From the sequence record NC_054922.1: 64,000 nucleotides of DNA. One strand, given 5' to 3'. Numbering within the stretch: the stretch's first letter is position 1; each line of letters starts with the position of its first letter. Origin of the DNA: Escherichia phage vB_EcoM_KAW1E185. Under the pieces are notes generated by a model. It made no database searches. It was not told where the DNA came from and was given only the letters and a program-made list of their open reading frames with translations. The position numbers were made by a program, and so were the translations under genes. This document shows, one piece after another, positions 60,288 to 62,895 of this stretch.

Positions 60288-60566
60288 TTATTCTTTAAAT
60301 CTAATCAATTTATTCATAGACTTTGAAACTTCTGCACGAACCTCATGTAGATTTTTGAGCTGTTCAAGACGCTGCGTATAGTAAGCAATTTCATCTTCTT
60401 CGAGACAGTCCTGCGAATCTTCTTTAAGATAACGTGCATAGTCCTGGAAAGCGTTACGGACTACTTCCTGGAAGTCATCAAGACTTTGAATTTTCTTAGG
60501 AGCAGCAGACACACGACGAGGGGCAGTATAATACTCATAACCAAACCCTGCGCTTAATTGAGCCAT
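60288..60566 (-). CDS. hypothetical protein (about 92 aa)
   Basis: ORF track 60288..60608; internal ATG abuts the upstream stop. Confidence 0.4.
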
Positions 60567-60832
60567 TAGTATTTTTCCTCTGGTTGGAACACAGCACGAC
60601 AAGCCCACATACTGGCTTCTTTGAGTTTCGTTTTAGCAATAGCTAACTGATCGAGGCTTTCAGCATAATTCTTCGCGAGTTCAAAGTCTTCGCAATCGTC
60701 CCACGCTTCCCAGAATTCATCGTATAAAGCGTCAAAGATAAGTCCTAAACGAACTTCAGCGTCTTTGATAGCATTCACTTTACCGATTTTCTCTTCAGTA
60801 TGTGGTTTATAACCCTTAATATCTTCAATCAT
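60566..60832 (-). CDS. hypothetical acidic protein (about 88 aa)
   Basis: ORF track 60566..60868. Confidence 0.4.
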
Positions 60833-61046
60833 ATTTGACTTCCTCACCAGTACATAAATCATATTCAACTAAACGAATGGGTTCATGAATGCCATATCCC
60901 TGAACAGAAATTTCTGTCGTAGGATAAATTCCATCAATATCACCCATATTCCACGCTTCATTAAATTGCTGTTCACCTGAATTACTAAACCACTCGGCGA
61001 AAGCATTTAGCACATCTTTAGAACCTTCAATAATTATCTTTGCCAT
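60825..61046 (-). CDS. hypothetical protein (73 aa)
   Basis: ORF. Confidence 0.4.
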   Translation of the reverse strand: MAKIIIEGSKDVLNAFAEWFSNSGEQQFNEAWNMGDIDGIYPTTEISVQGYGIHEPIRLVEYDLCTGEEVKYD

Positions 61047-61408
61047 TACAAACTCTCGGTGAAGGTACGAGCGATAACGTCGCGCTGCTGTTCCGGAGTC
61101 AGAGAGTTAAAGCGAACTGCATAACCGGATACACGGATGGTCAGCTGCGGATATTTTTCCGGATGCTTAACTGCATCTTCCAGAGTTTCACGACGCAAAA
61201 CGTTAACGTTCAGGTGTTGACCACCTTCAATTTTAACTGTAGGTTGTGGCTCAATTTCAATTTCACGGGCATGCAAACCATAGAAAATTTCTGGGTCTAC
61301 AAAAGAGTCCTCTTTAAAGGTTTTAGAGACAATAATTCGTGCTTGAATACCATCTTCAAAATAAATAGTACCTTTATGTGTGCCTTCAAGAATTTGATAT
61401 GCTTTCAT
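61046..61408 (-). CDS. GrcA/YfiD-like autonomous glycyl-radical cofactor
   Basis: C-terminal ...[59 protein letters not shown] with RVSGY glycyl-radical motif. Confidence 0.7.
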
Positions 61409-61415
61409 ATAAACC

Positions 61416-61745
61416 TCAATTAGAAAATAAATTTATCCAAGATTGTTCTTTAATTAAAAATGGCTCAGAATCATATGCCATTAAACTTTGCGTAATTAAT
61501 CCTTTAAAAGGTCCATCAATAAATTCCATGGTAAAATATGGAATTTTATTCATTAGCCGTGCATTAGGAGCAGTGCACAAAACTCTGCATCCTTTGAATA
61601 CGCCTTTTTGTAATTTGTATTGCTTAGGATAAAATTCACTTAAAATGTTATTTTTTGCCAAAATTTCAAAATGATTCACCAATTTATTTTTAATAGTTTT
61701 TGGTGAAAAATAAAGATATTCAAAAAGTTGCGCATCTGTCATCAT
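61416..61745 (-). CDS. hypothetical protein (about 109 aa)
   Basis: ORF track 61416..61796; ATG just after the upstream stop. Confidence 0.4.
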
Positions 61746-62281
61746 TGCATTCCGATTACGAAAAACTGTGGACGAGTAATACCACCAATGCAACATTTAC
61801 TATTACAGCAGTAGTGTACAGTGTCAATATGGACACTATAAATCTTATCCATATCAGGAGATTTGACAGGCTCATCAATTATATACAAAATTCGCGAAAG
61901 CGATAAACCTCTGAACTTGCTTCCTTTATTACCAATAAAACTGCGCACAGAATCAGTAAATAAACGAAAACGTATATCATCATTAGAATAACGCGAAAAT
62001 TCCTTTTTGATGTTATTTGCAGAAATTTTAGCGTAAGCTGAAGTATTAGAAAGAACAATAACTGTTCCGCCATCATACAACCAATTAGCAGCAAAGTTAG
62101 TCACAGCAATTGATTTACCAGATTGACGTCCACCGTCTAGTCGAAGTGTGCAGTACTGTTTAAGTAATTCTTCAAATGGCGGGATATATTCGTTTTTACA
62201 AATTTCTTCTACTCTAGCATCAGAATGGTGTGTAAAAGCATTCATCAGGGATAGATAAGGACCAGTTAAAAATGTTCTCAT
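61742..62281 (-). CDS. P-loop NTPase (179 aa)
   Basis: Walker A GGRQSGKS and Walker B ILYIIDEP. Confidence 0.5.
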   Translation of the reverse strand: MRTFLTGPYLSLMNAFTHHSDARVEEICKNEYIPPFEELLKQYCTLRLDGGRQSGKSIAVTNFAANWLYDGGTVIVLSNTSAYAKISANNIKKEFSRYSNDDIRFRLFTDSVRSFIGNKGSKFRGLSLSRILYIIDEPVKSPDMDKIYSVHIDTVHYCCNSKCCIGGITRPQFFVIGMQ

Positions 62282-62421
62282 TTCTTCTCTCTAAGTTTGG
62301 GCCATTCCATGGCGCATGAATTGTCCATTTCTGTATTTACCCATTACCGCACTTGGGCTCGACCTTATTACAGGTTGGCGGGAATCCCTCATAGAATCAT
62401 GAGGTCCAGGTTGTTCCCATG

Positions 62422-62895
62422 TTATTTGAACGATTTAACGTACTGAATAGAACCTTTACTATTCACAAAGGCAATTTTACCATTTTTGTTATACATGGTA
62501 GCAGTACGTTGATAGCCATAAGTTTGTTTACCAGATTGATAACCAACTAATGCGAAATTATCTTCACCCATTTTATTCTGCTTAGCACGAATGCGTTCAT
62601 GACCATGTGCCATAAGAACCTTAGCATCACCAGTTGCAATGGATCTACGAGTTTTTTCATCTTCAACTGTATTAACAAAGTCGTCAAATGAATCAAATTT
62701 AGCATGAGATTTATTATACAGTTTTCCATCTACTGCATAATTATATCCTTGTACATCCATCTCAACTTCTGTACCATCATCCAGTACAGCAGTGATTTTC
62801 TGTCCTTTTTTAAATTTCAAAAGATCAGTAAAAGATTCAGCAATAATTTGAGAATTAATAGCTGCTTCAGTAATAAATTCTTGATATGTTTTCAT
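62422..62895 (-). CDS. internal protein (IP) with capsid-targeting sequence
   Basis: starts MKTYQEFITEA (T4 IP CTS is MKTYQEFIAE); located just before gene e as the ip genes are. Confidence 0.7.
   Translation of the reverse strand: MKTYQEFITEAAINSQIIAESFTDLLKFKKGQKITAVLDDGTEVEMDVQGYNYAVDGKLYNKSHAKFDSFDDFVNTVEDEKTRRSIATGDAKVLMAHGHERIRAKQNKMGEDNFALVGYQSGKQTYGYQRTATMYNKNGKIAFVNSKGSIQYVKSFK

Follow-up and report, generated by a model that had tools for sequence, protein, structure and literature searches.

A host-matched grcA tract in the 3′ half of the T4-type gene vs.6, with a parallel case in Klebsiella phages

Introduction

The Escherichia coli autonomous glycyl-radical cofactor YfiD (GrcA) and its bacteriophage T4 homologue Y06I, the product of vs.6, are reported to be activated by the activating enzyme (PflA) of pyruvate formate-lyase (PFL, PflB) (Wagner et al. 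2001, as summarised in PMC8683613) and, according to the same summary, to restore the activity of PFL that has been cleaved by oxygen at Gly734 (PMC8683613). In YfiD, the disordered residues 1-60 are required to bind cleaved PFL and to install the radical efficiently, residues 61-127 form a structured domain with the fold of PFL 693-759, and the radical is carried by the glycine of the RVSGY motif (PMC8683613). Here, we analyze a stretch of 64,000 nucleotides (nt) from Escherichia phage vB_EcoM_KAW1E185 (NC_054922.1), hereafter the window, and the vs.6 gene on its minus strand, which is a mosaic of a phage-lineage 5′ half and a 3′ half matching E. coli grcA. It is the same gene as T4 Y06I/vs.6, and its product resembles E. 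coli YfiD in that the C-terminal 60 residues equal YfiD 68-127, including RVSGY, and departs from YfiD in an N-terminal half (N-half) that is ~28% identical and 7 residues shorter.

T4, the textbook lytic phage, destroys the DNA of its host and is usually described as having next to no sequence in common with E. coli. According to reviews of T4-related genomes, clues to how lateral transfer into such phages happens are few (PMC2993671). In cyanophages, psbA and psbD have undergone intragenic recombination with host photosynthesis genes (Sullivan et al. 2006, PMC1484495). As with psbA, vs.6 is a metabolic gene of host origin in a lytic T4-like phage, and exchange of segments with the copy in the host has made it a mosaic. 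Unlike in psbA, the vs.6 patch is one short block of about 170-185 nt ending at a protein-domain boundary, its donor species is near-exact, the same junction recurs in phages of two host genera, and the setting is T4/E. coli, where host-to-phage recombination is directly testable. Neither the gene nor its biochemical role is new, and the evolutionary pattern is of a known kind, with cyanophage psbA as the closest parallel. In the searchable literature we found no account of the nucleotide mosaic of vs.6, of a Klebsiella parallel or of repeated host-matched patching, older key T4 papers lying outside that scope, so that an earlier mention is possible.

Results

The gene and its three parts are laid out in the window as follows:

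61046..61408, minus strand: vs.6 / Y06I gene, 120 amino acids, predicted autonomous glycyl-radical cofactor (GrcA/YfiD homologue), from the list of open reading frames (ORFs), Pfam, a Protein Data Bank (PDB) match and the annotation of relatives
61231..61408, minus strand: N-terminal half, gene nt 1-178, amino acids 1-59, phage-lineage and AT-rich, from the lack of an E. coli nucleotide match, a G+C content at third codon positions (GC3) of 0.18, and hhalign
61064..61230, minus strand: core of the host-derived tract, gene nt 179-345, structured glycyl-radical domain, with one mismatch to E. coli grcA
61046..61063, minus strand: last 18 nt (F-T-E-S-L-stop), probable 3′ edge of the tract, amino acids host-identical and 5/5 sense codons synonymously different from E. 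coli

Residues 61-120 of the protein correspond to residues 68-127 of E. coli GrcA, and all 60 are identical; an earlier note, made from the DNA letters alone, had pointed to such a match for the last roughly 60 residues, and it extends to the nucleotide level. In a comparison with 5,426 complete E. coli genomes (blastn/megablast), gene nt 179-363 match grcA at 96.8% (blastn) in every genome, and for gene nt 1-178 a blastn match to these genomes was looked for and none was found. We refer to gene nt 179-345 (167 nt) as the core; the first 165 nt of the GrcA-identical module, gene nt 181-345, are 99.4% identical to E. coli grcA. In pairwise alignment, identity with E. coli grcA begins abruptly at TTGAAGGTGG, after which one mismatch occurs until 18 nt before the stop, and the T4 reference differs from E. 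coli at 3 positions across the whole 183-nt module.

The maximum chi-square breakpoint of a protein-guided codon alignment falls at gene nt 178, with 46.1% identity on the left and 96.8% on the right (chi2 = 115; 0/2000 permutations reach that value, none lying above 21.6). The nucleotide alignment that the earlier note had proposed for finding an identity breakpoint thus places a sharp one inside the gene, and the uniform divergence that it had named as the contrary outcome was not seen. GC3 is 0.18 upstream of the junction and 0.47 downstream, the corresponding halves of E. coli grcA having 0.42 and 0.43, and codon choice changes across the junction from ATT to ATC, from CCA/CCT to CCG, and toward CTG and CGT; this comparison of the halves, also suggested beforehand, favours recombination. 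Besides, no other 183-nt stretch of the 64-kb window is as rich in GC as the tract (0.49 vs a mean of 0.343, standard deviation 0.04), and megablast of the whole window against the E. coli genomes returned 61042-61230 as the sole matching segment, which also matches pflB more weakly, at 80.6%. The longest exact run between the window phage and a host allele is 136 nt.

At the other end of the tract, the last 18 nt contain sites that are polymorphic among T4-like phages; being both polymorphic and synonymously diverged, they probably represent its 3′ edge. Homology to E. coli grcA past the vs.6 stop codon was absent from the alignment, the 3′ limit being fixed by a TAATG overlap with the next gene. 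We also considered whether the last codons are kept as the ribosome-binding site of that overlapping gene, GAGAG/GAGG being present in the window phage and in the Klebsiella phage Nispero; as a general rule this is unsupported, since phage G2285 has an E. coli-like GAAAG.

The N-half was described in the earlier note as divergent, which holds at 46.1% nucleotide identity, but it is not unrelated to the host protein: hhalign aligns phage N-halves with host GrcA N-halves over 60 columns (probability 97%, E = 1.1e-10, 28% identity). It is also conserved among T4-like phage genera, with for example 72% nucleotide identity to Jiaodavirus. Judged by these alignments, the N-half is an old, diverged homologue of the GrcA N-half, and vs.6 is thus an old phage grcA homologue whose 3′ half was recently overwritten by the host copy, the tract corresponding to YfiD residues 67/68-127, i.e., the structured domain. 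Since a homologous N-half means that the whole gene descends from a grcA-like gene, one could instead suppose that a complete host grcA was captured recently and that its N-half then diverged rapidly or was replaced separately. However, the N-half combines 46% nucleotide identity with a phage-like GC3, and the C-terminal half (C-half) differs by 1-3%, so the halves are not of the same age. Moreover, the same N-half family at the same position is common to genera whose C-halves come from different hosts, and no host-like N-half was found among the phage records (50,697, searched by megablast) with grcA queries that included those of Salmonella, Klebsiella and Enterobacter. We consider recent whole-gene capture very improbable.

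The earlier note had left the choice between recent recombination with the host gene and strong constraint on the glycyl-radical module. Constraint is real at the protein level, the radical domain being very strongly conserved in all compared hosts and phages; amino-acid identity alone is therefore weak proof, and synonymous sites are decisive. In the C-part, 6/61 codons of the window phage differ synonymously from E. coli, as do 2-6 in other T4-like phages and 24/59 in Salmonella grcA; RB16 encodes the same 60 residues, yet 29/61 of its codons differ. Constraint alone is thus insufficient, as it does not produce nucleotide identity, and the sharp breakpoint taken together with 6/61 against 29/61 codons bears out the recombination that the note had put forward. 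Purifying selection without any recombination, on a C-half that must fit host PflA and PflB, can point to extreme protein conservation across the compared hosts and phages, and to RB16, which retains 60/60 E. coli residues despite diverged DNA. It is nevertheless already refuted by the synonymous-site data, namely host-identical synonymous sites with 0-3 core mismatches, the change in codon usage and GC3 at the junction, and K. pneumoniae-specific synonymous bases in Klebsiella phages, and its likelihood is only a step away from nil.

The donor can be named. Among the C-parts compared (80 IMG/VR phage loci and 80 bacterial species, later joined by 80 metagenomic grcA loci), only the T4 and Mosigvirus group lies near any host, at 96.7-98.9%, and that host is Escherichia, the next best species reaching about 90-92%; the window phage has the E. 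coli base at 20/20 sites that distinguish E. coli from K. pneumoniae. RB16, RB43 and KP15, whose C-halves are identical or near-identical in protein, show 80-86% nucleotide identity to any of 162 host alleles and exact runs of at most 35 nt. Across unconverted phages (RB16, RB43, KP15, CC31, RB49-like, T5-like, jumbo), identity to hosts is 63-86% and the longest exact runs are at most 37 nt, vs 136-152 nt in T4/Mosigvirus phages. These unconverted homologues (RB16, RB43, KP15, CC31, T5-like, jumbo) are the same two-part protein with a strongly conserved radical domain, and wherever the neighbourhood of a T4-like phage was compared, the genomic position was also the same; they differ in the AT-shifted codons of their C-halves, whose DNA is 70-86% identical to host grcA, and show the gene without a recent host patch. 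A pflB/tdcE fragment was rejected as the donor, with pflB at 80.6% vs grcA at 96.3% (megablast) and a pflB-type allele of the comparison set (L077) at 78.7%.

Transfer ran from host to phage, as indicated by the host codon usage of the tract and by E. coli grcA itself, which has diverged from its relatives to an equal degree in both halves (e.g., 84.6% and 84.2% vs Salmonella). The same observations oppose a transfer from phage to E. coli, and an assembly or contamination artefact is at odds with a mosaic that recurs in the T4 reference and across hundreds of phages sequenced independently; of all the readings weighed here, reverse transfer or artefact receives the least credence, which is practically none.

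RB16-type E. coli phages (RB16, L014 and L015) have a C-half protein 100% identical to E. coli GrcA with DNA at ~83%, and KP15-type Klebsiella phages (L019/L020) have the Klebsiella-type residues LLDAVEH with a DNA identity of ~84%; their C-halves are either much older, drifted conversions or products of selection for host-matching residues. Several IMG/VR viral contigs (within L071-L081) carry full-length or truncated pflB with a host-like GC3 of 0.5-0.6, and another (L031) carries a full-length Yersinia-like grcA, 91% identical to that of Yersinia artesiana; all of these probably stem from the host genome or from the flanks of prophages and are not phage genes.

A second case occurs in Klebsiella phages of the genus Jiaodavirus, whose C-half residues read LLDAVEH (Klebsiella-type) where E. 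coli has LEDAVKH. The metagenomic grcA loci recovered include some, such as L168, that encode exactly K. pneumoniae GrcA (GRCA_KLEP7), and megablast of the L168 gene against the phage collection matched 106 records at 95-98.2% over grcA nt 202-369/374; the matches listed are Klebsiella phages of ~165-168 kb, together with a 288-kb Klebsiella-phage record and one phage that bears a Salmonella label. The match covers the same 3′ half and starts at the junction common to coliphages. Over the first 165 nt of the module, identities to the two host genes are:

Nispero (Jiaodavirus): K. pneumoniae grcA 97.6%, E. coli grcA 87.3%
KPV15 (Jiaodavirus): K. pneumoniae grcA 98.2%, E. coli grcA 87.3%
Window phage: K. 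pneumoniae grcA 87.3%, E. coli grcA 99.4%

At 20 host-diagnostic sites in this stretch, the base is that of E. coli at 18-20 in T4/Mosigvirus phages and that of K. pneumoniae at 15-19 in Jiaodavirus phages, and the GC3 of Nispero is 0.63 in the C-half, near the 0.67 of K. pneumoniae, and 0.23 in the N-half. As two phage genera each have the allele of their own host, conversion occurred independently at least twice. The Jiaodavirus tracts have three differences from K. pneumoniae in common (sites 180, 306, 339), and in the more diverged members the changes are mostly GC-to-AT, which fits one somewhat older Jiaodavirus event followed by drift toward phage composition.

Two Jiaodavirus-type records are unusual in themselves. 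In KPV15 (NC_055715.1, locus L249, 322-683), vs.6 has a 1-nt deletion in the N-half (362 vs 363 nt) and is annotated as two short coding sequences, so that either the gene is a pseudogene or the deletion is a sequencing error. Beyond the deletion, the host-like tract is intact, at 98.2% to K. pneumoniae. The vB_Kpn_AM_K4 record (PP355766.1, locus L250, 288,685 bp) has at 1324-1686 a Jiaodavirus-type vs.6 with a K. pneumoniae-type tract, adjoining tRNA genes; given its unusual length for the group, it may be a chimeric assembly or reflect a different genome organisation.

As for timing, an alignment of 16 coliphage sequences contains two N-half types, T4-like (n=9) and Mosigvirus-like (n=7), which are separated by 12 fixed differences in nt 1-178 and by 0 in nt 179-345 (Fisher p = 4e-4), so that the tract is younger than the split of the two types. 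Both types include several phages with a core identical to the E. coli reference allele, and mismatches to E. coli in the 167-nt core range from 0 to 3 across coliphages. In the phage collection, 392 records match the E. coli core at ≥99%, 249 at 95-99%, 2 at 90-95% and 107 (Klebsiella phages) at 80-90%. The coliphage tract was either installed more than once, refreshed from the host, or spread between phages. Three phage polymorphic sites (195, 219, 282) match E. coli allelic variants base for base, which is suggestive of different E. coli donor alleles behind the phage polymorphisms, though no more than suggestive; the commonest alternative host variant, 204A, occurs in 0/16 phages examined.

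These data also allow one conversion per host species, after which the converted allele spread among co-infecting phages without continuing conversion. Recombination among T-even phages is frequent and free, all coliphages examined (the 16 aligned and VIPECOOM03) have an identical 5′ junction, and the three shared differences and GC-to-AT drift of Jiaodavirus fit one older event. Such a history sits less well with the absence of fixed core differences just downstream of 12 fixed sites, or with about half of 750 matching records being ≥99% identical to the E. coli allele, and phage-to-phage exchange would need repeated breaks at the same junction. We regard a single conversion per host as a serious possibility, if on the doubtful side.

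With respect to host labels, phages labelled Pseudomonas, Hafnia, Proteus, Serratia and Yersinia carry the E. coli-type tract, and the K. pneumoniae-type tract occurs in “Salmonella phage PSE-D1”; the ancestral or main host of a phage may thus be read more reliably from the tract than from the label given at isolation.

The window is T4-like coliphage DNA, and the best phage-record matches of its vs.6 gene are Tequatrovirus. By megablast, 755 phage records match the gene, 743/755 covering ≥80% of it; it is 100% identical to that of Escherichia phage 303Ecol101PP and 98.6-98.9% identical at the nucleotide level to the T4 reference gene (NC_000866.4). In annotated relatives, vs.6 lies inside the tk to e region, flanked by vs.7 and a small vs.5-like ORF, and the vs.6 / GrcA annotation is present in phage AR1 and in the T4 reference, whose protein has the RefSeq name “autonomous glycyl radical cofactor GrcA”. 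The homology to Y06I that the earlier note had pointed out therefore concerns the very same gene, and the repair function that it had attributed to Y06I agrees with the summary in PMC8683613.

The Pfam Gly_radical domain spans amino acids 61-101 of the protein (66.8 bits vs a cut-off of 22.2); among solved structures, the protein aligns with YfiD/GrcA (PDB 6OWR, residues 28-127, E = 8.6e-42), and it also aligns with PFL residues 697-759. As in GrcA, this is a small standalone protein with a C-terminal glycyl-radical domain bearing RVSGY, and by domain content and N-half homology vs.6 is grouped with GrcA. A single residue separates it from T4 Y06I, R73 here being H73 in T4. Codon 73 of the T4 reference encodes His (LRHETL) where the window, other phages and E. 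coli GrcA have Arg (LRRETL), a single G-to-A change within the host-derived tract. Smaller features of the gene and its borders are:

61408-61406 and 61048-61046, minus strand: ATG start and TAA stop codons of vs.6
61124..61126, minus strand: codon of Gly95 in the RVSGY motif, the predicted radical-bearing glycine, equivalent to E. coli GrcA G102 and PflB G734
61414..61417, minus strand: GAGG, putative Shine-Dalgarno sequence read from the sequence, 6-9 nt 5′ of the vs.6 ATG and overlapping the TGA stop of the vs.7-like gene
61044..61048, minus strand: TAATG overlap of the vs.6 stop and the downstream ATG, with one base common to both genes

The downstream gene encodes 73 amino acids, is a homologue of ar1_122 and occupies the vs.5 position; the overlap suggests that its translation may be coupled to that of vs.6. 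A scan of 60500-62400 for sigma-70 promoters and terminators gave no more sites than shuffled sequence. An antisense ORF of 127 amino acids with a TTG start (61040-61423, plus strand) spans all of vs.6 and is most likely an unsupported shadow ORF. Further along, at 62422-62895 on the minus strand, a 157-amino-acid ORF lies between vs.8 and the lysozyme gene e, as in AR1, where it is annotated as Ip4 (internal virion protein); in T4, vs.8 is followed by denV and then ipII in its place, a gene-content difference among close relatives. In the Aeromonas phages PX29 and phiWae14, the vs.6 homologue adjoins, and by annotation overlaps, nrdG, the activase of anaerobic ribonucleotide reductase, which is another glycyl-radical system.

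Discussion

We propose, with a probability of about 0.88, that vs.6 is a T4-type “spare part” gene whose 3′ half was replaced by host grcA through gene conversion. In line with host-to-phage intragenic conversion, the gene has a breakpoint, synonymous identity together with host composition, and an identifiable donor lineage nested in host diversity. The data themselves establish that the gene is a mosaic, which species was the donor, which way the transfer went and that there were two or more independent events.

With one residue separating it from T4 Y06I, the window protein can be assigned the same role by analogy, and the expected mechanism is that of YfiD and Y06I, namely that PflA activates the protein, which then stands in for the C-terminus that oxygen has cleaved from PflB. 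Host PflA would install the radical on Gly95, and the protein would dock onto oxygen-cleaved host PFL and restore its activity, which would keep fermentative energy metabolism going during low-oxygen infection. As the N-half of YfiD acts in PFL binding and that of the phage has diverged, binding or regulation may differ in the phage version.

T4-type phages replicate through recombination, and fragments of host DNA are present during infection. The 5′ half (nt 1-178) is the old phage-lineage descendant of a grcA-like gene, and the 3′ part, from nt 179 to about 345-363, has been replaced by the chromosomal grcA of the host, probably through homology-limited gene conversion during infection, the radical-domain block being alike enough in phage and host to pair. 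Unconverted phages retain about 75-85% identity to host grcA in this block, which would permit a heteroduplex, and the heteroduplex would end where homology ends, upstream at codon 60/61 and downstream near the stop, at the next phage gene. A heteroduplex bounded in this way would explain why both host-phage pairs share the same 5′ junction, why host-like N-halves are absent from phage records, and why the last 18-27 nt stay phage-like or polymorphic.

Several points weigh against gene conversion from the host, or against its generality. T4 degrades host DNA, the 5′ junction lies at the very edge of detectable homology, where a simple crossover would need flanking homology, and the recombination mechanism is inferred rather than observed. 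The grcA genes of Salmonella enterica and Enterobacter asburiae matched nothing above 90% in the phage collection, and the E. coli phages RB16 and RB43 and T5-like phages are unconverted, so that conversion is not general. The overlap of phage and host polymorphic sites is not significant (hypergeometric p = 0.23), and the count of coliphage events rests on 16 sequences, for which phage-to-phage exchange could give the same pattern. Finally, at full length vs.6 scores 153.3 bits against the NCBIfam GrcA equivalog (TIGR04365), missing the cut-off of 170, because its N-half has diverged.

Going further, we advance tentatively, at somewhat short of even odds, that whichever enterobacterial species a phage lineage replicates in, its grcA overwrites the radical-domain half of vs.6 again and again, perhaps continually, a form of concerted evolution between a gene of a strictly lytic phage and the homologue in its host. 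Any benefit of matching the host allele is inferred as well, and conversion may be advantageous or neutral and simply driven by homology.

The patch in vs.6 is clean and datable, with a known donor species and a defined junction, it has arisen again in a second phage genus and host, and it opens host-phage recombination to direct testing in the best of the available genetic systems. It divides vs.6 into a host-identical radical-domain half, which must fit PflA and PflB, and a phage-specific N-half; as the N-half governs the binding of damaged PFL in YfiD, this division suggests in which part of the protein the phage may have altered how repair is regulated. The tract also provides a sequence marker of host ancestry for T-even phages. 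If repeated overwriting proves true, it would be a built-in record of host history, usable for assigning hosts to T-even phages, and would represent the first clear natural trace of homologous recombination between a T4-like phage and the host chromosome, with host-matching possibly under selection.

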